A stretch of DNA of 32,000 nt from Acholeplasma laidlawii PG-8A (GTDB lineage: Bacteria; Bacillota_I; Bacilli_A; Acholeplasmatales; Acholeplasmataceae). Positions within the stretch are counted from its first letter, which is position 1. Each line of letters starts with the position of its first letter. A program made the translations under genes and the position numbers. The stretch spans positions 1,464,993 through 1,496,992 of the forward strand of contig NC_010163.1 of the NCBI RefSeq assembly GCF_000018785.1, read 5' to 3'. A model generated the notes under the pieces. The model saw only the letters and a list, made by a program, of their open reading frames with translations. It did not search any database and had not been told where the DNA came from. Shown in pieces: positions 12,577 through 27,024 of this stretch.

Positions 12577-12583
12577 GTAGAAA

Positions 12584-12600
12584 ATGTAAAACGTTTACAT
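12584..12600. repeat. Perfect 7-nt inverted repeat ATGTAAA-ACG-TTTACAT (operator-like, or a weak terminator of the carotenoid operon)
   Basis: Read directly from the sequence. It lies 23 nt downstream of the stop at 12623 and 8 nt upstream of the candidate distal -35. On the minus-strand transcript it is followed by TTTTCT. The left half resembles a cre half-site (TGTAAACG). Confidence 0.35.
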
Positions 12601-12622
12601 TCTTATCTATAAGGACATATAT

Positions 12623-13417
12623 TTAGATGACCAACAATAGGTAAGTTACAACCGAAATCGTAAGGACCATAATGAAATTTACAGTACTGTTATTAATAAA
12701 CTTTTTACCTGATATAAGTATAAATTGCTCAGTATTTGATATCATTTCCGCTATTTTTCCACTTTTTATGTCTTTGTATTTTGCTTGTAAAAAGACGCCT
12801 AAATAACTATCTAAAATACTTCCCAAAAACCCTGAAATTGTAATAATTACACTAAATTCTGTGAGTAAATTTAGACTAAATTCTTCTGTTAAAAAGTATA
12901 GTGCAGAAAACATTAAACTAATCACTAACGCGCCTAAAAATGAAGCAACTACACCAAGCATACTCACAGCACCGGATAGACCTTTTTCCATAGCCTTAAA
13001 GGTGAGTATAGAGTAGGTTTTACCTTTACTTAAACTACCAATTTCAGAAGCCCAAGTGTCGGCTGTGGATGCTGCAATAGCAACCACAGCGACAACAAGA
13101 TATGTTAAATCGTGTAAAAAATAATAGAGTGTTAAGAAAAATAAGGAAACGATAGAGTTAGAAATCACTTGAATATAGTCTCTACCATACTTTTCTTTTT
13201 CGTTTTTATTAAACTTTGAAATAATACTTGAACTAATAAAGAAGAAGATAAGTATACTCCAAGCAATAAAGGTTCCGAAAACATAAAATAGCATACCAAC
13301 GATACTCGCAGTGATAAAACCACTCACTGTCAGTGATCTTTTTTTATATGCAACAAATGCTACCGATAAACTTAGTAATAGACCGATGATGTATGGTACA
13401 AACATATGCTCATTCAT
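12623..13417 (-). CDS. DUF92/TMEM19-family integral membrane protein (VTE6-like; candidate prenyl-phosphate kinase)
   Basis: 264 aa and polytopic. Family-typical motifs: AASTADTWASEIGSLSKG, GLSGAVSMLG, GSILDSYLGVFLQ. It is the last gene of the carotenoid operon. The SD AGGAG is only 1 nt from ATG 13417, so the in-frame ATG at 13405 (MFVPY) may be the real start. Confidence 0.75.
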   Translation of the reverse strand: MNEHMFVPYIIGLLLSLSVAFVAYKKRSLTVSGFITASIVGMLFYVFGTFIAWSILIFFFISSSIISKFNKNEKEKYGRDYIQVISNSIVSLFFLTLYYFLHDLTYLVVAVVAIAASTADTWASEIGSLSKGKTYSILTFKAMEKGLSGAVSMLGVVASFLGALVISLMFSALYFLTEEFSLNLLTEFSVIITISGFLGSILDSYLGVFLQAKYKDIKSGKIAEMISNTEQFILISGKKFINNSTVNFIMVLTISVVTYLLLVI

Positions 13418-13432
13418 GCTCCTTAGTGTACA

Positions 13433-14293
13433 TTACTTATAAATACTTAAAACAATTTCTTTTTTTCTTTCATCAGATACAACACTTCTGATGTTATAGA
13501 CATCATAGTTGTTTAATCTAATGGTATGAATAATTTCTTCATACATCTTGGATGCTAGTAAGAGTGGCTTTCTAGCATCTGGTTTAAATAGATGTAGTTT
13601 TTCTAATGCAATTTCATATTTCTTATGTGCATAGTTTGCAAGGTATTCAAACATTTGAGTGAATCCGTGATTGATAACACCTGTTTCTAAATCTTCTTGG
13701 GTGTAATTAAATTGCTGCATGACATCCTTGGGTATATAGATGCGGTTTCTTTTACGATCTTCACCAATATCTCTTAAGATATTTGTAATTTGCATCGCTT
13801 CCCCTAAATTTGTAGCTACATACTTTAATTCACCAATTGCCTCTTTAGGTGCTAGTACATAACTTAACATCTCACCTACAACACCCGCTACATGATAACA
13901 ATACTTTAGTAAATCATCAAGTGTTATGGGTTGTATAAACAAGAAGTCTTGTCTCTGGCCTTCAATTAAGTCGAAATATGGTTTAAAATCATAATCTTTA
14001 GGATAATAATACTTAATAACTTCATTTAGACTTCTGAAGATAAAATCCGTTGGTGGATTTCCTTTAATCATGTTCATTAATTTAGCTTCATAACTATTTA
14101 ATAAGTCAATATCTTTATATTCATCAATGGCATCATCAACAACTCTACAATAGGCATAAATTGCATAGATCGCTTGGCGATCTTGCTTGGCTTTTAGCAT
14201 ACTAAAAGCCTTATAAAAAGTTTTAGAGTTTTCTTTTATAATTGCTTCACACTTATTAAAATCTTCTTTGAGTTGTTTAGATAATTTCATCAT
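13433..14293 (-). CDS. crtM: 4,4'-diapophytoene (dehydrosqualene) synthase
   Basis: 286 aa in the squalene/phytoene synthase family. Motifs: YAYCRVVDDAIDE, CYHVAGVVGEML, ITNILRDIGEDRKRNRIY. It aligns along its full length with my memory of S. aureus CrtM. The start overlaps the crtN stop by 1 nt. Confidence 0.85.
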   Translation of the reverse strand: MMKLSKQLKEDFNKCEAIIKENSKTFYKAFSMLKAKQDRQAIYAIYAYCRVVDDAIDEYKDIDLLNSYEAKLMNMIKGNPPTDFIFRSLNEVIKYYYPKDYDFKPYFDLIEGQRQDFLFIQPITLDDLLKYCYHVAGVVGEMLSYVLAPKEAIGELKYVATNLGEAMQITNILRDIGEDRKRNRIYIPKDVMQQFNYTQEDLETGVINHGFTQMFEYLANYAHKKYEIALEKLHLFKPDARKPLLLASKMYEEIIHTIRLNNYDVYNIRSVVSDERKKEIVLSIYK

Positions 14294-15780
14294 TATTTAA
14301 GATCCTTATGCAGTTCATTAACTGCTAATTTTGCACTATTTAAAACAATTGGAACTCCAGCACCTGGGTGATTACTACTACCAGCTGAATATAAATTCTT
14401 TAGATATCTAAATTTATTTTGTGGTCTATAGTAGTTGGATTGTAATAAGGTTGGACGAAGACCAAAGGTTGCACCAAATTGTAGATTGAATTTAGATTCG
14501 AAATCATTTGGACTATAGACCTTAAGATATTCTATATTATCTTTGATATCTTTAAATACTTCATGCTCAGACATCATATCTAATATTTTATTTTTATACG
14601 CCTCTACTGCTTTATCATCCCATTTTTCAGGACTATCTGATTTGTTAGGTACCGGTACTAGGACATACATAGCCTCTTTACCTTCTGGTGCCATGGAACT
14701 ATCAATACGACTTGGTGTGTATACATAGTATGATGGATCTTTAGGTGTATTACCTTCAAATATGTCATTAATGTTACCATTAAAGTCATTGGTAAAGAAG
14801 AATGTATGAGTTTTTAAGTCATAACGTTTTTTAGTACCTATGTATAGTATAAATGATGAAGAAGAATATAACATTTTATTGACTTTCTTTTCGCTATATT
14901 TTCCTTTGTTTTTCTTTTCTTTAATTAAATTGTTCATAACCCACGGGAAATCCGCATTGGTTAACACAGCATCATAGTTTTCAGTCACTTTACCATCAAC
15001 CTTTAATGCTTTAATTTGTTTTTTCTCAATAAGCAGTTCTTCTACACTTTGATTTAGTAAGATTTTTCCACCCATCTCTATAAATCTTTTCTCCATTGCT
15101 TTAGCCATACTGTACATTCCACCTTTAATATAATGAACACCGTATAGTAATTCAATCATTGGAATAATTGTATAAATTGATGGTCCATTATATGGTGATA
15201 TACCTATATATAGTGTTTGGAATGCTAAAGATTGTCTTAATTTTTCATTCTTAACAAATTTAGCAATAGATTTATAAGCTGAGCTAAAGGTTTTTAGTTT
15301 CAAACCTTGATAAAGCATTTTAGGGTTGTAAAAGTCGGTTGGTTTTCTAAAACTACGATCAATAAAGTGATTTTTAGCAACTAAATAGCGTTTATAAACG
15401 TCTGCTAAATAAGCTAAGTAACCTTGAGCATCTTCTTCACTAATCTTTTCGTTTTCTATCGTCATTTCAACTAAATCGTTGGTTGCGATTAAGTTTGTCT
15501 TGTCACGATATTTGATTTCAAACATCGGATCAAGACGTACCATATCAATATAGTCCTTATAATCTACACCACTAACTCTAAATACTTCTTTATAGATCTC
15601 TGGCATCATAACGATTGTTGGTCCTACATCAAATGTAAAACCTTCTTCTTTAATTTGATACATTCTTCCACCTACTTTTTCATTCTTTTCATAGATGGTT
15701 ACATCATATCCTAGTGCCTTAAGACGAATAGCTGAAGCTAAGCCTGCTGTTCCAGCACCAATTATAGCAACTTTTTTCAT
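14293..15780 (-). CDS. crtN: 4,4'-diapophytoene desaturase (CrtI/CrtN family)
   Basis: 495 aa. FAD fold MKKVAIIGAGTAGLASA. Long blocks nearly match S. aureus CrtN as I recall it: GGRMYQIKEEGFTFDVGPTIVMMPEIYKEVF, AFQTLYIGISPYNGPSIYTIIPMIE, GVHYIKGGMY, FGLRPTLLQSNYYRPQN, HPGAGVPIVLNSAK. Confidence 0.9.
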   Translation of the reverse strand: MKKVAIIGAGTAGLASAIRLKALGYDVTIYEKNEKVGGRMYQIKEEGFTFDVGPTIVMMPEIYKEVFRVSGVDYKDYIDMVRLDPMFEIKYRDKTNLIATNDLVEMTIENEKISEEDAQGYLAYLADVYKRYLVAKNHFIDRSFRKPTDFYNPKMLYQGLKLKTFSSAYKSIAKFVKNEKLRQSLAFQTLYIGISPYNGPSIYTIIPMIELLYGVHYIKGGMYSMAKAMEKRFIEMGGKILLNQSVEELLIEKKQIKALKVDGKVTENYDAVLTNADFPWVMNNLIKEKKNKGKYSEKKVNKMLYSSSSFILYIGTKKRYDLKTHTFFFTNDFNGNINDIFEGNTPKDPSYYVYTPSRIDSSMAPEGKEAMYVLVPVPNKSDSPEKWDDKAVEAYKNKILDMMSEHEVFKDIKDNIEYLKVYSPNDFESKFNLQFGATFGLRPTLLQSNYYRPQNKFRYLKNLYSAGSSNHPGAGVPIVLNSAKLAVNELHKDLK

Positions 15781-15795
15781 TTCAAATCCTCTTTC

Positions 15796-16455
15796 TTAAA
15801 TCAATAGTAATACATAATACAAGAATGAAGTACCTAGTGGTACAGATAAGTTATCTAATCCTTTAGGTGTTATATATTCTGTTAGGGTTGCAAATACTGC
15901 AACTGCTAATGCAATCCAGAGTCTGGTTACACTATTTGAATAAATGATAATTAGGCTAGATGCAAGTAGTGATACAACAAACATTGTAACTACACCTACA
16001 ACTGTTTTACCATGTCCAATGTCTTTGGTACCATACTTTTTACCAAGTACAGCAGCAAGTCCATCACCATAGCCCATCAGCATAACACCTAATAAACCAA
16101 TATAGGCGTTACCTAGTACATAAAACGAGACAAATACGAGTATTGTAAGGGAAATTGGGTAATAAACTGTGCCTAAGTTTCCCTTACCATTACGTTCCAT
16201 AGACTTAATGAGATTCGTCTTATAAGATATATAGTTTAAGATAATAAATGATACGGGTGGAATTAAAGTAAAGAGTATATCGTTAGGATCTTGCATAAAG
16301 GTGAGGGCTATAAAATACCAATTCGATACACCAATATGAATAAATTTTCTACTACCTTCTTCACCAATGATTCCTTTTTTACTTAAGATAGTTGATAACC
16401 CAATCATTAAAGCAATAAAGCCGTATGATGATAATAAATAATAAAGAATATGCAT
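15796..16455 (-). CDS. Polyprenol/phytol/dolichol-kinase-like membrane protein (CTP-dependent kinase family, VTE5/SEC59-like)
   Basis: Polytopic. Motifs: SRKFIHIG, GTVYYPIS, GYGDGLAAVLGKKYG......GKTVVG, EYITPKGLDNLSVPL. The ORF-track start at 16461 is a GTG inside the SD GAGGTG. I prefer ATG 16455, which gives 219 aa. Confidence 0.7.
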   Translation of the reverse strand: MHILYYLLSSYGFIALMIGLSTILSKKGIIGEEGSRKFIHIGVSNWYFIALTFMQDPNDILFTLIPPVSFIILNYISYKTNLIKSMERNGKGNLGTVYYPISLTILVFVSFYVLGNAYIGLLGVMLMGYGDGLAAVLGKKYGTKDIGHGKTVVGVVTMFVVSLLASSLIIIYSNSVTRLWIALAVAVFATLTEYITPKGLDNLSVPLGTSFLYYVLLLI

Positions 16456-16464
16456 AGACACCTC

Positions 16465-20878: not shown

Positions 20879-21661
20879 TTACTTTTTAGGAGGTAGTGGA
20901 AAGAAAATAGATGTTTTACTTGCGTATGCTTGATATGCCAAATTCGTTTTATATTTCTTTTCAAGTAATGGAACGCCTGTTACATAAAGTAATAAATATG
21001 TAATGATTAACGGACTTATAAGTCCTATGAAACTTATAATATTCATTGTTCCTAATGTAGCAATACCAATTCCCCACCAAAGAGTAGCTTCCCCAAAATA
21101 ATTAGGGTGTCTGGAAAACTTCCAGACATTTTTTTGCATAATTTTTCCTTTGTTTGAAGGATCTTTTTTAAATCTTTGTAGTGAGTGATCCGCGAGCACT
21201 TCAAAGATAAAACCAATAAAGAAAATCAGTGCGCCTAGTGATACAAGTATGATGCTTACCATGTCAAATGTTTTGTTAGATATTAAGTTTGTTAAGATGA
21301 TTGGTAATGCTATGATATAACTAAATATAGACTGTGTCAAGAAAACATATAATAGGGCTTTTAACTTCACATGTGTTTTCCATTTATTTCTAAAGTTTTG
21401 ATATCTAAAGTCTTCTTCTTTATTAAAGTTTCTCTTAAATAAATATAAAGATAATCTTAGACCCCAAATGATAGTTAATCCTGTAACGATTAAACCAGTG
21501 ATCGTATATTGATCACCAAGTATGAGTGAAGATACTGCACTCACTACCACACCCATACCCCAAGCTATATCTACTAAACCGTTATTCTTTTTAATTTGAG
21601 CAATGACATACCAAATAAGAAAGTATGCTAGTAAGATAAGATAAATATATAAATAATTCAT
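20879..21661 (-). CDS. DUF1295 / steroid-5-alpha-reductase-like membrane protein
   Basis: 260 aa and polytopic. Family-typical C-terminal block WKFSRHPNYFGEATLWWGIG. The start overlaps the upstream stop by 1 nt. Confidence 0.75.
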   Translation of the reverse strand: MNYLYIYLILLAYFLIWYVIAQIKKNNGLVDIAWGMGVVVSAVSSLILGDQYTITGLIVTGLTIIWGLRLSLYLFKRNFNKEEDFRYQNFRNKWKTHVKLKALLYVFLTQSIFSYIIALPIILTNLISNKTFDMVSIILVSLGALIFFIGFIFEVLADHSLQRFKKDPSNKGKIMQKNVWKFSRHPNYFGEATLWWGIGIATLGTMNIISFIGLISPLIITYLLLYVTGVPLLEKKYKTNLAYQAYASKTSIFFPLPPKK

Positions 21662-23433
21662 TATGATTCCTTTCTAATCAATCCAACCGCTACAGAGTTT
21701 AACCCTGAGTTCATAGCAATAATAGATGATATCTCCCCTACATATACCGGTGCTTTACCAGTCTTTTTAATAATCTCTGTTTTTAATTTTTCTGCTAATT
21801 TTAAATTGGATACATGGACAATTGCGTAATTTTCAATGCCTGCTGTTTTATGAATATGGCTTACCATATTGACTAGTTTTTTAAAATTTCGTTTTTGACC
21901 AATCGTCTTTGATAATACAACACCTTCACCCGCATCATTAATAGATACAATAGGTTTTAATCTTAATAACTTACCTAAGGTGCCAAGACTTTTTTTGATT
22001 CTACCACTTCTTACCATATTATCTAAGGTATCTACGTGAACTAGAATTTGAGTCTTTTGAACTAGTGTATTGATTGCTAGTTTGATGTTTTCAAAAGGTA
22101 CTTTTTGTTCAATCATTTTAGCTACTTCATAAACAATTAATCCTTCTGAGACGCTGTTTTGTTTGGTATCAACAAGTAATACATCTTTATCTTTATAACC
22201 TTCAAGTGCCTTAGTAAATAAGTTGTGTATACCACTCATTTTTGAAGATACGGTTAAGATGATTAACTTTTTATAGTGTTTTAATAAAAAGTTAATCTGC
22301 GCATCGATTGATTTTATACTCGGTGTAAATGATGTGGGAAACTTTTCATGCTTATCGATGTAGTGGAAGAGTTGGTGGTTATTGATTGTTAACTTATCGT
22401 AATAGACTATATCATTAAAGTTGATACCAATTGGATGCACATGTATTGGATGACTATCTACAAATATTTTAGGTAGATCAGCAATTGAATCAGTTAGTAT
22501 ACAAATCTCATTATCCTTTGCCTGTGTAGCTTGGTATTGCTTTCTCATATCGTCAACTTTAGATTCTAGTATTTGACCAAGTCCACTTAGTTTTTCTACG
22601 ATTACTTCTGGTTGGTTGGTGTGAAGATGCACACGTTTAAGTCTTTTTGTTTCTCCAATGACAAGTGAGTCACCAAAATTATCAAGTAGCTTTGTTAGTG
22701 ATTGTTTATCCGTTGTTGTTTGAAGTAGTACTTCTGTACAATAGCGGTATGTAATATCTATGTGATCATGTTCGATGGTTTCAGGTTCTTCAAAACTATG
22801 TTGTTGCGCTACATCATCAGTTGTAGATCTTTTAATAATGCTTTGTAGAAAACCTTCAACAAATAATGTAAATCCAAGTGCACCTGCATCTACTACACCA
22901 AATGTTTTTAGAACTTCAAGTTCAGACTTGGTTTGTTCAAGTGCTTTGTTTAACTCTACGATGATATAGTCTACATAAGTTTCTATATTATCAATTGGTT
23001 GATTTGTGTTTTTCAGTGTTTCACTTAGTTTACGCATCAACGTTACCATGGTGCCTTCAACAGGATGACTTATGGCGTTGTATGCATGTATCACGCCTGA
23101 TTCAATTCTTCTGATGAATTCAGGATAATCTATACTTTGATGTGTCTTTGTAAGGCTATATAAGAATTGAGAAAAGATTAATCCAGAGTTTCCACGTGAC
23201 CCGATTAATGCTGCATCTGCTAAAGATTCTAGTGTTTCATCAATCGTGTTACCTAATTTGGTTTGTTCTATGATTGCTTTCATTAAGGCACTTAAGTTAT
23301 TACCTGTATCTTGATCTTGTACAGGGAAAACATTTAATTGATTCAGTGTATCCTTTTTTTCAATTACTCTTTTAGCACCATGAATTAAAGCATCATACAT
23401 ACTCTTATTTTCAATCATTTGAAATTCATTCAT
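21661..23433 (-). CDS. DAK2(DhaL)-domain / DegV-domain fusion protein (fatty-acid-kinase FakA/YloV-like)
   Basis: 590 aa. N-terminus: LNVFPVQDQDTGNNLSALM, IGSRGNSGLIFSQF (DhaL-like). C-terminal ~285 aa aligns over its length with DegV: ICILTDSIADLP, PTSFTPS, VSSKMSGI, VDTLDNMVRSGRI, LLRLKPIV. Confidence 0.7.
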   Translation of the reverse strand: MNEFQMIENKSMYDALIHGAKRVIEKKDTLNQLNVFPVQDQDTGNNLSALMKAIIEQTKLGNTIDETLESLADAALIGSRGNSGLIFSQFLYSLTKTHQSIDYPEFIRRIESGVIHAYNAISHPVEGTMVTLMRKLSETLKNTNQPIDNIETYVDYIIVELNKALEQTKSELEVLKTFGVVDAGALGFTLFVEGFLQSIIKRSTTDDVAQQHSFEEPETIEHDHIDITYRYCTEVLLQTTTDKQSLTKLLDNFGDSLVIGETKRLKRVHLHTNQPEVIVEKLSGLGQILESKVDDMRKQYQATQAKDNEICILTDSIADLPKIFVDSHPIHVHPIGINFNDIVYYDKLTINNHQLFHYIDKHEKFPTSFTPSIKSIDAQINFLLKHYKKLIILTVSSKMSGIHNLFTKALEGYKDKDVLLVDTKQNSVSEGLIVYEVAKMIEQKVPFENIKLAINTLVQKTQILVHVDTLDNMVRSGRIKKSLGTLGKLLRLKPIVSINDAGEGVVLSKTIGQKRNFKKLVNMVSHIHKTAGIENYAIVHVSNLKLAEKLKTEIIKKTGKAPVYVGEISSIIAMNSGLNSVAVGLIRKES

Positions 23434-23837
23434 TTTTCGAAGAACCTCCTATAGACGACATAGGTTATTATGGTTGTTACAAGTGTTAGGGATGTACCCC
23501 AAATTAGATCAATAACAACAATGAGTAATGGAAAGTCTTGCATGGTTGCATAATTGGTTAAATCATATGCACCGTATGTAGCAAACCCATAAATGAGTGC
23601 ATAGAGGATGGTTTGCTTAAATGACTTTTCTTTAAGTCCTGGTTTTAACACCAGTACGAGTAGTCCTGTAACAAATGCTACATAAAATATAACTGCTGGA
23701 ATGAGTTTAAACTCGTTACTGATTAAGTGTCCTAACTGTTCTTGATATAAGTCTTTTGAAAGTACACCTAACCATAGTAGGTCAATTAATAAAAATACAA
23801 TCGTTGCAATCATAAATAAAATAACATTCTTTTTCAT
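23430..23837 (-). CDS. Small polytopic membrane protein (DUF2177-like)
   Basis: I prefer ATG 23837 (MKKNVILFMIATIVFLLIDLLWLG), which has SD AAGGAG 7 nt upstream and gives 135 aa. The ORF-track start at 23951 lies inside the photolyase terminator hairpin. Motif YGAYDLTNYA. The stop overlaps the next start (ATGA). Confidence 0.65.
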   Translation of the reverse strand: MKKNVILFMIATIVFLLIDLLWLGVLSKDLYQEQLGHLISNEFKLIPAVIFYVAFVTGLLVLVLKPGLKEKSFKQTILYALIYGFATYGAYDLTNYATMQDFPLLIVVIDLIWGTSLTLVTTIITYVVYRRFFEK

Positions 23838-23934
23838 GTGGATACTCCTTTTCATTACTTGACTAAAGTATACGCTTTTACATTTTATAAAGTTTATGGA
23901 TGTCACAAAATGTCGTTTTTTTGTAATGAGATGT

Positions 23935-23960
23935 AAAAAAGACCACTTCATGAAGTGATC
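23935..23960 (-). terminator. Rho-independent terminator after the photolyase gene
   Basis: The minus-strand transcript reads GATCACTTCATGAAGTGGTC (8 paired positions with one mismatch), followed by TTTTTTAC. It begins 1 nt after the stop at 23962. Confidence 0.6.
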
Positions 23961-23961
23961 T

Positions 23962-25338
23962 TTATAGTGTATTGACGTAATCTAGGTAAGTTTTCATATC
24001 AAATTTTCGAATCAGACCTTGTTCGTTCATATATCTTAATTTACCAAATATAGCTCGCTCTTGCCAAGCTCTATCATGTTTACCAAAGTTCCATGCGATA
24101 TTACCATAAGAGTTTGGATTTCTGCCATCGATAAAGTATTTATTATTTAAGTAGACTATGATTTGGTAGGCATCTTTCATAGACCCTGACCACTCCATAA
24201 TCTTTTTAGCCCAATACATTCTTAAGTAGTTTGCCATAAACCCTGTAATACGTGCTTCTTTCATCGCTGCATTAAAGTGTATATCATGGGTTTTACTAAA
24301 TTCTATATCTTCTAAACTATAGATATGTGTTCTTAAATCTCTTTCATGCTCATACATTGTTTCATATGCCCAAGACTCTGTCATAAATTCAAACACATCA
24401 TAATCTTTAATATATGTAACAAAGTTATACGCTAGAGACCTTCTCACCACTAATTGTTCAATAAAACCTTCTGACATTTCAGGATAGATCTTATAGAATG
24501 GATGATCATAGAGCATACGCAATATTTCTTGATCGGATACTTGCCCGAATTGTAGATACATCGACATATAAGATTGAATATGTAGTGCAGGATCAGATCT
24601 TTTATCATAATCTTTAAGTAGTTGGTTAAAGAAATATTCTAAATGTTTATAGGCTTCTTTTCTACCACCTTTAAATTTATGATATGGTTTCACACTCATA
24701 TCAATTGGTAGGTTTTTTACTACTTCGTCTATGTTTGAAAGATCAAGTGGTTCATAGACTTTAGTCTTTTCAATATTATCTAACCTAGATAATTCTCTAT
24801 AATCCATATATTGAGGTAATTTTTCCATCACTTTGGGTCTAATTACATAGGCACCATAAGCAGCTTTTGGATAAAGTACTTCAACAGGTATGATAAGATC
24901 GGTTTCTACTTGAATAATATCTATAGCATGTGTATCTTTAACGATTTTATAGACTTCATTTCTCATCTGTCTTTGAGGTTTTAAATAGCCTCTATCCATA
25001 ATGATGGTATCAACATCATCCAAATAAGGTTTGATGTTTTCTGTTAGTTTACCAATACTTAATTCAAAGTGAATGTTTTCTTTAACGAAATCTTGTTGAA
25101 GTTCTTTTAGACCCTCTAACATAAAGGTGTAGTGTCTAAGGTTCGCTTCAGGGTAGTTTGGTAGTATGTTGAACCAGACAATTAACGGTAGTTTTTTCTT
25201 ATTAGCAAGTTCAATCGCGTAATTTAAGGCATGGTTATACTGGATGCGCATGGATTGCTGCATCCAGTATAAAATGAATTTACCTTGTTTATTTGTGTTG
25301 TGTTCTAAAAACTTTTTAACTCGATCGTTATGTATCAT
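23962..25338 (-). CDS. phr: Class II CPD deoxyribodipyrimidine photolyase
   Basis: 458 aa. Class II-type blocks: FILYWMQQSMRIQYNHAL, RHYTFMLEGLKEL, YLRMYWAKKIMEW, YLNNKYFIDGRNPNSYGNIAWNFGKHDRAWQERAIFGKLRYMN. It starts 8 nt after the asnS stop. Confidence 0.85.
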   Translation of the reverse strand: MIHNDRVKKFLEHNTNKQGKFILYWMQQSMRIQYNHALNYAIELANKKKLPLIVWFNILPNYPEANLRHYTFMLEGLKELQQDFVKENIHFELSIGKLTENIKPYLDDVDTIIMDRGYLKPQRQMRNEVYKIVKDTHAIDIIQVETDLIIPVEVLYPKAAYGAYVIRPKVMEKLPQYMDYRELSRLDNIEKTKVYEPLDLSNIDEVVKNLPIDMSVKPYHKFKGGRKEAYKHLEYFFNQLLKDYDKRSDPALHIQSYMSMYLQFGQVSDQEILRMLYDHPFYKIYPEMSEGFIEQLVVRRSLAYNFVTYIKDYDVFEFMTESWAYETMYEHERDLRTHIYSLEDIEFSKTHDIHFNAAMKEARITGFMANYLRMYWAKKIMEWSGSMKDAYQIIVYLNNKYFIDGRNPNSYGNIAWNFGKHDRAWQERAIFGKLRYMNEQGLIRKFDMKTYLDYVNTL

Positions 25339-25346
25339 ATTTTGAA

Positions 25347-26738
25347 TTAAAATAAAATGTTTTTAGGTGTTCTAGGGAATGGAATAACGTCTCTAATATT
25401 TTCTACACCAGTTACATAGATTAAGTATCTTTCAAAACCTAATCCAAAACCAGATGTTTGAACACCACCATAACGTCTAAGATCTAAATACCAATCAAGG
25501 TCTTTAACCGGTACATGCATATCTTCCATACGTTTAAGTAAAACATCTAATCTTTCTTCTCTTTGAGATCCACCCACTAATTCGCCTGAACCAGGTACTA
25601 ATAGGTCTACTGCAGCAACTGTTTTTTGATCGTCATTTAATCTCATATAGAATGCTTTAATATCTTTTGGCCAGTCTTTTACAAACACTGGACCATGGAA
25701 TGCTTTTTCTGTTAGATATCTTTCATGTTCTTTAGCTAAGTCTTCACCATGTTTTGGTTGGTTTTCAAATTTGTGGTTGGATTTTAGTAAGATATTAATT
25801 GCTTCTTCATGAGTAATACGTTTAAATGATGATTTTAGTAGGTTATCTAACTTGGTTAATAATCCTTTTTCTACAAATTTATCAAAAAATGCCATTTCTT
25901 CTTTTGCATGTTCTAAGACATAAGATGTAACATATTTCACCATACGTTCAATAAGTTCCATATTGTCATTTAAGTCTGCAAATGCAATCTCTGGTTCAAT
26001 CATCCAAAACTCTGATGCATGGGTTGTAGTATTAGAGTTTTCTGCTCTAAATGTTGGACCAAATGTATAGATATTTCTAAATGCGTGTGCATAAGCTTCT
26101 CCTTCGAGTTGTCCTGTAACAGTAAGGTTAGCTTCTCTACCAAAGAAATCTTTACTATAGTCAATACTTGAGTCTTCATTTCTAGGTGGCTTATTCATGT
26201 CTAGTGTAGTAACTTTAAACATAGCGCCTGCGCCTTCACCATCGTTTGCAGTTAAAATTGGTGTGTGTACATAGACAAAGTCTTGTTCCTGAAAGAATTT
26301 ATGTATTGCATAAGCAGCTATACTTCTAACTCTAAATACTGCAGAAAATAAATTCGTTCTTGGACGAAGGTGTGCAACCTCTCTTAAAAACTCTCTTGTG
26401 TGGCGTTTTGGTTGGATTGGATAGTTTTCACCTGAATCCCCTATTAGTCTCACTTCTAGTGCCTTAATTTCAAATGGTTGGCTTCTATCTGGTGTTAAAA
26501 CAAGCGTACCTATAACTTCAATGGATGCACCTACAGATAAACGTGTCACTGCATCAAAGTCTTTTGTTGTTGCCCTTTCATATACTACTTGGATGTTTTC
26601 AAAAAAACTACCATCATTTAGGTTAATAAACCCAAATTCTTTTTGATCACGGTGGTTTCTAATCCACCCCTTTAATATAACTTCTTGACCTGCATACCTT
26701 GCAGGATCTTTATATATTGTTCTAATTGTTAAATCCAT
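25347..26738 (-). CDS. asnS: Asparagine--tRNA ligase
   Basis: 463 aa, class IIb aaRS. N-terminal OB domain [25 protein letters not shown]. Motif 2 [21 protein letters not shown]. Motif 3 [36 protein letters not shown]. Confidence 0.95.
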
Positions 26739-26744
26739 AAGTTT

Positions 26745-27024
26745 TCTCCTTTTAATATAATAAAGTCCTTAGACTAAAATTTAGTCTAAGGACGAATAAT
26801 CGCGGTACCACCTTAGTTCTAGATTAACATAGCTAATCTAGCGCTCAACTTGCTTATATAACGGATAAGCGATCCGTACAGTTCTACTAACATTTATATG
26901 TGTTCTTCTGTCTCTAAAAAGTGTTATTTCAAATCAGCATATGTGTTAATTTTCACCAACCATTAACTCTCTTAAACATATCATCTGTTTTACTCTTCTT
27001 TTTTATGATGTATATGAAGTTTCT
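26745..27024 (-). promoter_or_regulatory. T-box riboswitch leader of asnS (candidate AAC Asn specifier)
   Basis: Elements on the minus strand: AGAGA elements; a candidate specifier AAC at 26904-26902, followed by A; an F-box CCGTTA; the T-box core AAGGTGGTACCGCG (26817-26801). The terminator hairpin GTCCTTAGACTAAA/TTTAGTCTAAGGAC (26793-26765) is followed by TTTATTATATT. CTAAGG within the T-box can pair with CCTTAG of the terminator 5' arm to form the antiterminator. Confidence 0.8.

Follow-up and report, generated by a model that had tools for sequence, protein, structure and literature searches.

A putative prenol-kinase gene pair linked to the carotenoid genes crtN and crtM in Acholeplasma laidlawii and other bacteria

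Background

In plants and cyanobacteria, VTE5 and VTE6 act one after the other as phytol kinase and phytyl-phosphate kinase (PMC9782597, PMC3223725), and the role of VTE6, a member of COG1836, had been predicted from the pairing of its relatives with COG0170-type kinases in prokaryotic genomes (PMC3223725, PMC9782597). Biochemical evidence for the salvage of farnesol and geranylgeraniol by two successive kinases goes back decades, but genes are available only for phytol, from plants and cyanobacteria, and for one prenol kinase of Plasmodium (PMC9782597, PMC10849223). A review of 2022 knew genes for farnesol and geranylgeraniol salvage only from plants and cyanobacteria (PMC9782597), and the Plasmodium enzyme was added in 2024 (PMC10849223). 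In archaea, COG0170-COG1836 fusions occur, for example Mbar_A3310 of Methanosarcina barkeri (Makarova et al. 2015; PMC5898192). On the carotenoid side, crtM and crtN of Eubacterium limosum expressed in Escherichia coli led to 15-cis-4,4'-diapophytoene and 4,4'-diaponeurosporene, as determined by nuclear magnetic resonance, and the crtE homolog of this organism had no geranylgeranyl diphosphate (GGPP) synthase activity (PMC11611032). Here, a locus of Acholeplasma laidlawii PG-8A is described in which these two themes meet: a stretch of 32 kb, called the window throughout and representing the part of the host genome to which the whole analysis was limited, carries crtN and crtM together with genes for a VTE5-like membrane protein (VTE5L) and for a protein of the DUF92 family, to which VTE6 belongs.

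A preceding sequence-only reading of this DNA had proposed that the two membrane proteins, whose genes bracket crtN-crtM, could phosphorylate farnesol or another free prenol in two steps and thereby feed CrtM, a module that was not known to it from bacterial C30 carotenoid operons. No publication linking crtM or crtN with a phytol kinase or DUF92 was found in a literature coverage that was incomplete, so that absence is no proof.

Results and Discussion

Arrangement of the four genes in A. laidlawii

The sequence-only reading had placed four genes on the minus strand, separated by at most 15 nt or overlapping by one nucleotide. The open reading frame (ORF) calls agree with it: the genes have the same boundaries and follow each other in 5' to 3' direction as VTE5L, crtN, crtM, and DUF92 (Table 1), with spacings of 15, -1, and 15 nt. 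The start assumed for VTE5L, an ATG at 16455, was also retained. It is preferred over a longer ORF starting with GTG at 16461, because the resulting 219 aa match nearly all homologs and a GAGGTG ribosome-binding site is located upstream. For DUF92, the start is at 13417, or at the ATG at 13405 if the protein has 260 aa like its homologs. The four proteins are 91-96% identical to their counterparts in A. laidlawii strain 8195.

Linkage of the genes in unrelated bacteria

For a genome survey, 80 species-level loci were retrieved via a conserved DUF92 motif and scanned with the window proteins; this survey and the reverse survey described below cover at most 80 loci each, picked by similarity rank. 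A VTE5L gene is adjacent or fused to DUF92 in 64 loci, and in 36 of the 80 crtM and/or crtN is directly adjacent as well, several other loci ending at contig edges. These crt-linked loci come from five phyla, Mycoplasmatota, Bacillota (Eubacterium, Acetobacterium, Clostridium, Erysipelotrichaceae, and Mageeibacillus), Thermotogota (Petrotoga and Athalassotoga), Actinomycetota (Gordonibacter), and Spirochaetota. Synteny confined to a single genome is therefore decisively refuted, and linkage of this kind is far beyond chance. That the pair is linked to crtN-crtM in many unrelated bacteria lends good support to a functional connection between both membrane proteins and the synthesis of C30 carotenoids.

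The usual order is crtN-crtM-VTE5L-DUF92. It is present in most Acholeplasmataceae, Haploplasma axanthum, Eubacterium limosum, E. callanderi, Acetobacterium bakii, one Clostridium species, Erysipelotrichaceae, Mageeibacillus, Petrotoga and other Thermotogota, and one Spirochaetaceae metagenome-assembled genome. Apart from A. laidlawii itself, the order of the window, VTE5L-crtN-crtM-DUF92, was detected in A. granularum and one uncultured Acholeplasma alone, in all three together with peroxidase and ABC (ATP-binding cassette) transporter genes. The bracket is a derived, lineage-specific rearrangement in which the VTE5-like gene moved ahead of crtN. What recurs outside this lineage is the linkage of the four genes and not the bracket, to which no special meaning is attached. 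In three loci crtN is inverted; the linkage is kept despite such changes of order.

In the reverse survey, metagenome loci were seeded with CrtM, and the CrtN type in question was defined by a score of at least 500 bits. Kinase genes were found in six of the seven loci with such a CrtN versus none of the 73 other SQS_PSY loci (Fisher p ~2e-8). In a set of 26 cassettes, the pairwise distances calculated for CrtM, VTE5L, and DUF92 correlate strongly with each other (r ~0.9), as would fit genes that are inherited or transferred together, although part of the correlation reflects shared species phylogeny.

Fusions of the two membrane proteins were predicted in nine of the 80 genome loci, always with VTE5L as the N-terminal and DUF92 as the C-terminal domain. 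In Gordonibacter faecis (L069) the fusion gene directly follows crtN-crtM, and in Athalassotoga (L070) it is located near crtN-crtM. Among the 150 top-ranking cluster representatives of a profile search, 49 had a length of 400 aa or more; when seven long representatives (308-597 aa) were checked, PF01940 was found C-terminally in all seven, with a partial match in two. Fused VTE5L-DUF92 proteins of 487-510 aa were also detected in Saccharibacteria and related uncultured organisms (L025, L028, L032, L033, L036), where crt genes are missing. For these episymbionts with their tiny genomes, scavenging of host prenols for carrier-lipid synthesis would fit.

Three further observations concern individual loci. 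In two Acetobacterium-type loci (L064 and L094), the arrangement is crtN-crtM-DUF92 followed by a tocopherol-cyclase-like gene, and the interval from crtM to DUF92 is too short to hold a VTE5-like gene. Such lineages either encode the first kinase at another place in the genome or can do without it. H. axanthum, whose name refers to the absence of yellow pigment, harbors an apparently intact cassette, preceded by a TetR-family gene and followed by a photolyase gene. One contig (L003; ENA ERZ1645045 ctg2093) contains at least four VTE5-like copies or fragments in both orientations among broken ABC/FtsX pieces, and seems to be an assembly error or a long-read chimera, not biology.

Identity of crtM and crtN

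CrtM matches PF00494 (SQS_PSY) with an E value of 1.3e-57; the NCBIfam equivalog cut-off was not reached. Its Asp-rich motifs, with D53, D54, and D57 in one and D175 and D179 in the other, are invariant, and its closest solved relatives are of the CrtM type (8is6, named 'CrtM', 5iys, and 2zco from Staphylococcus aureus). F30, which is invariant in 13 cassette CrtMs, aligns with F26 of the S. aureus enzyme, the residue that we take to restrict CrtM to C15 substrates; Umeno et al. are said to have found in 2002 that F26 limits the substrate of S. aureus CrtM to C15. CrtN scores 450 bits against TIGR02734 (crtI_fam; cut-off 238). The E. limosum locus (L026) contains the same four-gene cassette, and the window proteins are 39% (CrtM) and 54% (CrtN, over 99% of the length) identical to those of E. 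limosum. Because the E. limosum orthologs make C30 products and the Phe at the F26 position is conserved, farnesyl diphosphate (FPP) is most likely the substrate of CrtM and the pigment most likely a C30 carotenoid, in agreement with what the sequence-only reading had assumed. None of the tailoring genes crtP, crtQ, and crtO is present in the cassette.

The two membrane proteins

The family assignment made before was confirmed by profile for DUF92, whereas that of VTE5L is supported only indirectly. The DUF92 protein matches PF01940 over nearly its full length (207.5 bits, cut-off 27.5; E 2.8e-61; residues 15-254 against profile positions 2-250 of 251), and its score with the equivalog TIGR00297, 95.9 bits, is below the cut-off of 205.85. 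On these scores it belongs unambiguously to the VTE6 family (PF01940) but is not closely orthologous to the seed proteins of TIGR00297. DUF92 proteins are described as related to cytidylyltransferases, as containing conserved Asp residues, and as fused to a SEC59-like domain in archaea (PMC5898192). In 14 diverse DUF92 sequences, D120, located in the motif DTWASEIG, and D203 are invariant. The AlphaFold (AF2) model has eight long helices and a predicted local distance difference test (pLDDT) value of 86, and its top four PDB fold matches were all TmCdsA, none of them significant (probability 0.69-0.92, E ~0.05).

Two orthologs of the VTE5-like protein, P0060 (26.9 bits) and P0080 (24.8 bits), which are 50-55% identical to it, exceed the PF01148 gathering cut-off of 24 over about 160 residues, and PF01148 is matched by five of 22 VTE5-like orthologs. 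Its membership in the PF01148/COG0170 polyprenol-kinase superfamily would thus be transitive only, via these orthologs and a weak fold match, and it is treated here as a presumably divergent, poorly modelled branch of the CTP_transf_1 (CdsA/dolichol kinase/phytol kinase) superfamily. Homologs are named 'phytol kinase' (JGI) or members of the 'SEC59/DGK1/VTE5 family' or the 'diacylglycerol/polyprenol kinase family' (NCBI), and one is labelled phosphatidate cytidylyltransferase in UniRef. The AF2 model shows eight helices (pLDDT 86). An exhaustive profile search for the VTE5-like domain (E <= 1e-3) yielded 7,549 cluster representatives at 50% identity, and the members checked gave marginal Pfam matches at best. 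This family is therefore an annotation gap, large, yet almost invisible to Pfam and NCBIfam.

Both proteins possess two invariant aspartates about 70-80 residues apart, D131 and D201 being among the invariant residues in the VTE5-like alignment. These pairs are compatible with the di-metal site described for the superfamily (PMC5898192), and D120 and D203 of DUF92 would be the Asp residues described there. The only CTP_transf_1 (PF01148) structure among the fold matches of both proteins is CdsA, the cytidine diphosphate-diacylglycerol (CDP-DAG) synthetase. PDB sequence searches with the VTE5-like sequence, the VTE5-like profile, and the DUF92 profile revealed neither CdsA nor any other relevant match. 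When the two profiles were compared by hhalign, similarity was undetected (probability 0.6%), and the common ancestry of the two families claimed in the literature was not reproduced with these shallow alignments.

A possible salvage pathway and its alternatives

According to the proposal, both membrane proteins would be related intramembrane enzymes with a cytidine triphosphate (CTP)-transferase fold. VTE5L, as a putative kinase, would convert a prenol to the prenyl monophosphate, and DUF92, the second putative kinase, would convert the latter to the prenyl diphosphate, in the cassette most likely FPP. Two molecules of FPP would be joined by CrtM to 4,4'-diapophytoene, which would be desaturated within the membrane by CrtN, yielding 4,4'-diaponeurosporene. 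Farnesol or farnesyl phosphate, whether released by dephosphorylation or imported, would be recaptured by the kinases, which would represent a supply or recycling branch outside the catalytic core. Methylerythritol phosphate (MEP) has been detected in A. laidlawii, indicating de novo isoprenoid synthesis (PMC3942410), and for this reason salvage is considered, not sole supply; the presence of the MEP pathway genes and of ispA in this species is taken from the literature. VTE5L constantly comes before DUF92, both as a gene and as a domain of the fusions, and this matches the proposed order of reactions. We infer kinase activity, the order of action, the C15 substrate, and flux into CrtM from these comparisons, and the part specific for farnesol is the least secure. 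That the four genes constitute one functional unit, with two-kinase prenol salvage feeding CrtM, appears quite possible, and it is the explanation which we tentatively prefer. A more far-reaching version, in which crtN-crtM-VTE5L-DUF92 would be a horizontally spread 'prenol-to-pigment' cassette of at least five phyla and its kinase-like genes would specify a bacterial farnesol kinase and a farnesyl-phosphate kinase, is more doubtful.

Several points weigh against this salvage proposal. To our knowledge, the crtM/crtN operons of S. aureus and Lactiplantibacillus plantarum contain no prenol-kinase genes. The VTE5-like protein of the window gave no match to Pfam (E <= 10) or NCBIfam (E <= 0.01), and the best PDB fold match of its model, CdsA (4q2e), was not significant (probability 0.51, E 0.39). 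The E. limosum crtM and crtN genes are functional in E. coli without the kinases (PMC11611032), and the kinases are therefore regarded as accessory, not as core enzymes. Finally, the VTE5L-DUF92 pair is found without crt genes in 29 of the 80 loci, including those of Clostridium species and, in fused form, of Saccharibacteria, and crt-linked and unlinked pairs interleave in the tree. Based on these two observations, the pair is a general module that in many, though not all, cases is joined to carotenoid genes. The module had been proposed to be hard-wired to carotenoid synthesis; the recurrent crt adjacency upholds the link but exclusivity is lost, and a carotenoid-specific clade of kinases had to be rejected because of the interleaving.

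Both observations would also be accounted for if the pair served general recycling of polyprenols and polyprenyl phosphates of any chain length, CrtM not being fed specifically and the crt genes being neighbors within a co-regulated island for membrane, light, or oxidative stress functions. The frequent photolyase, heliorhodopsin, and DUF1722 genes in the vicinity, and glutathione peroxidase in the window, suggest shared regulation of this kind, and in archaea DUF92 is found in the context of uppS and glycosylation (PMC5898192). Adjacency to crtN-crtM in five phyla, kept through rearrangements and fusions, and the near-obligate presence of the kinases beside one clade of CrtN are at odds with such a general role. 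Acholeplasma, moreover, lacks a cell wall, and its need for carrier lipids is reduced. Taken together, general recycling is considered rather unlikely. Another candidate substrate is a C20 prenol such as phytol or geranylgeraniol, derived from plants or hosts, which would be converted to GGPP or phytyl diphosphate; from this product CrtM would make C40 or mixed C35 carotenoids, or another enzyme would use it. The pigment of A. laidlawii was reportedly described as neurosporene-like, i.e. C40, in older biochemical work, many cassette hosts inhabit plant or gut material, and in five loci the pair has as a neighbor a gene for an alpha/beta hydrolase whose chlorophyllase-like match is weak. The characterised relatives VTE5 and VTE6 use phytol (PMC9782597), and some CrtM enzymes, such as that of L. 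plantarum, have CrtB activity (PMC11611032). However, CrtM and CrtN from the same cassette in E. limosum yield C30 products in an organism whose crtE homolog lacks GGPP synthase activity (PMC11611032), and the Phe equivalent to S. aureus F26 is invariant, making C20 salvage improbable.

The remaining two explanations are even less probable. The pair might not consist of kinases, but of cytidylyltransferase-type or other lipid enzymes, related for example to those acting on CDP-alcohols or CDP-DAG, with an indirect link to carotenoids. The only solved structural relative being CdsA, the naming of PF01148 as a cytidylyltransferase family, and the UniRef label mentioned above point in this direction. 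The characterised short members of the superfamily (~220 aa), VTE5, FOLK, DGK1, dolichol kinase, and the Plasmodium falciparum prenol kinase PfPolK, are CTP-dependent kinases, however (PMC9782597, PMC10849223), and the DUF92 protein VTE6 behaves as a phytyl-phosphate kinase (PMC9782597), so that this possibility is judged quite improbable. Alternatively, an intermediate or product of the pathway might be the substrate: presqualene alcohol or its monophosphate would be re-phosphorylated, or a C30 carotenoid hydroxylated by an accessory enzyme, for example the tocopherol-cyclase-like protein, would be phosphorylated. The lack of known tailoring genes in the cassette and a Tocopherol_cycl-like neighbor in a quarter of the genome loci (20/80) would be in line with it. 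Hydroxylated carotenoids and carotenyl glucosides have been reported in A. laidlawii. Against it stand the absence of the Tocopherol_cycl-like gene from the window as well as from the loci of A. laidlawii, A. granularum, H. axanthum, E. limosum, and Petrotoga, the occurrence of the pair without crt genes, and the fact that the hydroxyls phosphorylated by known family members are primary ones of polyprenols. Of all explanations it is regarded as the most improbable.

Gene neighborhood

In the window, the four genes are part of an uninterrupted, tightly packed run of seven genes (18713-12623), starting with a glutathione peroxidase gene and ending with DUF92 (Table 1). The operon therefore probably starts three genes further upstream than the four-gene view implies, and the ABC ATPase gene probably belongs to the same operon as VTE5L. 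Upstream of the glutathione peroxidase gene, a strong ribosome-binding site, AAGGAAGG, and an AT-rich promoter region are present, with genes for a histidine kinase and a response regulator of the LytTR type in divergent orientation to the run. The hairpin downstream of DUF92 (fold -10.9 kcal/mol, z-score -2.9 versus shuffles) was not flagged by a consensus terminator scan of the window, since it contains few G-C pairs. Beyond it lies a 483-nt spacer, in which the next operon has a strong promoter-like site. A seven-gene operon with glutathione peroxidase and an exporter-type ABC pair fits an oxidative or photo-stress function. Among the surveyed loci, this arrangement of ATPase, permease, and peroxidase genes is found only in the three Acholeplasma with the bracket order, and the ABC pair was rejected as a conserved part of the cassette, since it adjoins the latter in no lineage but the A. 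laidlawii/granularum clade.

A second run of four genes (20879-25338) precedes the operon on the same strand at a distance of about 2 kb; it is conserved in A. laidlawii and may belong with the operon to one neighborhood for photo-oxidative or membrane-maintenance functions. An Rfam scan of the window revealed nothing but one T-box leader, unrelated to the cassette.

At other loci, the cassette often sits in a light-related gene island, as judged from two kinds of neighbor: in several loci of Acholeplasmataceae, a heliorhodopsin gene lies shortly before crtN, and in about 14 loci DUF92 is immediately followed by a photolyase gene. C30 carotenoids cannot give retinal. In loci of the Erysipelotrichaceae type, the gene right after DUF92 belongs to the DUF1722 (YbgA-like) family; in E. 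coli, ybgA lies upstream of the photolyase gene, a further association with light repair. The alpha/beta hydrolase gene with the weak chlorophyllase-like match is divergent and upstream of the pair in its five loci.

In 20 of the 80 genome loci and in three metagenome loci, the neighbors of the cassette or of the pair include a gene for a protein of the Tocopherol_cycl family (~320 aa, PF14249, E ~1e-19). In four of them (L053, L060, L065, L073), it accompanies the kinase pair in the absence of crtN and crtM. Three 'vitamin E' families, VTE1-, VTE5-, and VTE6-like, are thus clustered in non-phototrophs. A tocopherol-type pathway composed of them was rejected, since no prenyltransferase-type gene was detected among the recurrent neighbors of the surveyed loci and the cyclase-like gene is not in the window.

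Table 1. Positions of the genes and other features discussed. Plain numbers refer to the window, L numbers denote surveyed loci.
Feature	Position	Strand	Remarks
VTE5-like putative prenol kinase, 219 aa	16455-15796	-	ORF and ribosome-binding site; 15 nt gap to crtN
crtN, 4,4'-diapophytoene desaturase, 495 aa	15780-14293	-	TIGR02734; 1-nt overlap with crtM at 14293
crtM, dehydrosqualene (4,4'-diapophytoene) synthase, 286 aa	14293-13433	-	PF00494; 15 nt gap to DUF92
DUF92/COG1836 (VTE6 family) putative prenyl-phosphate kinase, 264 aa	13417-12623	-	PF01940
ABC transporter ATPase (LolD/MacB-like)	17145-16465	-	9 nt upstream of the VTE5-like gene
FtsX-type ABC permease	18217-17147	-	PF02687; 1 nt from the ATPase gene
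Glutathione peroxidase	18713-18231	-	PF00255, E 2e-29; 13 nt to the permease gene
AU-rich 10-bp hairpin with U-rich run	12581-12603	-	~20 nt past the DUF92 stop; likely operon terminator
Photolyase	23962-25338	-	Run ~2 kb upstream of the operon
DUF2177 membrane protein	23430-23951	-	Run ~2 kb upstream of the operon
Fused FakA-DegV fatty-acid-kinase protein, 590 aa	21661-23433	-	Run ~2 kb upstream of the operon
DUF1295/steroid-reductase-like protein	20879-21661	-	Run ~2 kb upstream of the operon
T-box leader	26785-27014	-	110 bits; upstream of a class II aminoacyl-tRNA synthetase gene (25347-26738); ordinary
H. axanthum cassette crtN-crtM-VTE5L-DUF92	L004:4996-8783
Tocopherol_cycl-like gene	L009:4813-5784	-	PF14249
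Tocopherol_cycl-like gene, further loci (1)	L010, L013-L015, L017-L019, L021, L043, L047, L053, L054, L058, L060
Tocopherol_cycl-like gene, further loci (2)	L064, L065, L070, L073, L083, L086, L092, L094
Heliorhodopsin	L009:5859-6677	-	PF18761, E 5e-87
Heliorhodopsin, further loci	L015, L017, L019, L021, L043, L086, L087
DUF1722 (YbgA-like)	L060:10768-11196, L065:6311-6721, L073:6098-6490		Directly after DUF92

Significance

The cassette supplies candidates for both steps of prenol salvage in bacteria. If the more far-reaching version of the salvage proposal is true, it would provide the 'missing' pathway for farnesol and geranylgeraniol, the second enzyme of which is so far represented only by the phytyl-phosphate kinase VTE6 of plants and cyanobacteria. 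Free, membrane-active farnesol would be turned into a protective membrane carotenoid, and the color of the pigment would be a direct read-out of salvage; the yellow pigment conferred on E. coli by crtM and crtN represents a built-in colored reporter. Genetic tools exist for A. laidlawii (PMC10805103), which offers a tractable host for the cassette. The cassette could help to explain how wall-less Acholeplasma sustains its supply of membrane-reinforcing carotenoids, and also why the strict anaerobes Eubacterium, Acetobacterium, and Petrotoga keep C30 carotenoid genes.

Comparison with described systems

With the VTE5/VTE6 system, the locus shares the Pfam family of the second protein (PF01940/COG1836) and, in the proposed scheme, an identical route from prenol via prenyl phosphate to prenyl diphosphate. 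The first protein is placed in the same superfamily (PF01148/COG0170-type) as VTE5 and FOLK, the farnesol kinase of Arabidopsis, and is likewise short with about eight helices. The differences lie in the hosts, which are non-photosynthetic and in many cases strict anaerobes or wall-less, and in the pathway served, as the cassette is tied to crtM/crtN, with C30 carotenoids from FPP, and not to tocopherol or phylloquinone synthesis. In addition, the VTE5-like branch of the window is too divergent for Pfam and NCBIfam, and its DUF92 protein remains under the TIGR00297 cut-off.

The archaeal fusions contain the same two domains in the same order as the bacterial ones, with two conserved, presumably metal-binding Asp residues per domain, but they occur in a context of uppS and glycosylation, for which a dolichol-related role was proposed (PMC5898192), whereas the context here is carotenoid synthesis. 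PfPolK, needed for the use of exogenous farnesol and geranylgeraniol by P. falciparum when the MEP pathway is blocked (PMC10849223), belongs to the same polyprenol-kinase family and sets a precedent for salvage of both alcohols. It is a eukaryotic enzyme for which no partner kinase has been identified, while in the window a candidate for the second kinase is encoded in the same cluster and elsewhere is even fused.

Operons containing crtM and crtN, such as crtOPQMN of S. aureus, crtNM of L. plantarum, and crtM/crtN of E. limosum, specify the same two core enzymes, and crtOPQMN differs from the cassette by the presence of crtP, crtQ, and crtO. The E. limosum study is silent on the two genes downstream of crtM/crtN (PMC11611032). 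A survey of C30 carotenoid genes reported Clostridia with CrtN but without CrtM (PMC9907078), whereas the loci analysed here and the E. limosum study show CrtM adjacent to CrtN. Compared with all these systems, what would be new is that the known logic of two-kinase salvage is joined to a C30 carotenoid operon in non-phototrophs.

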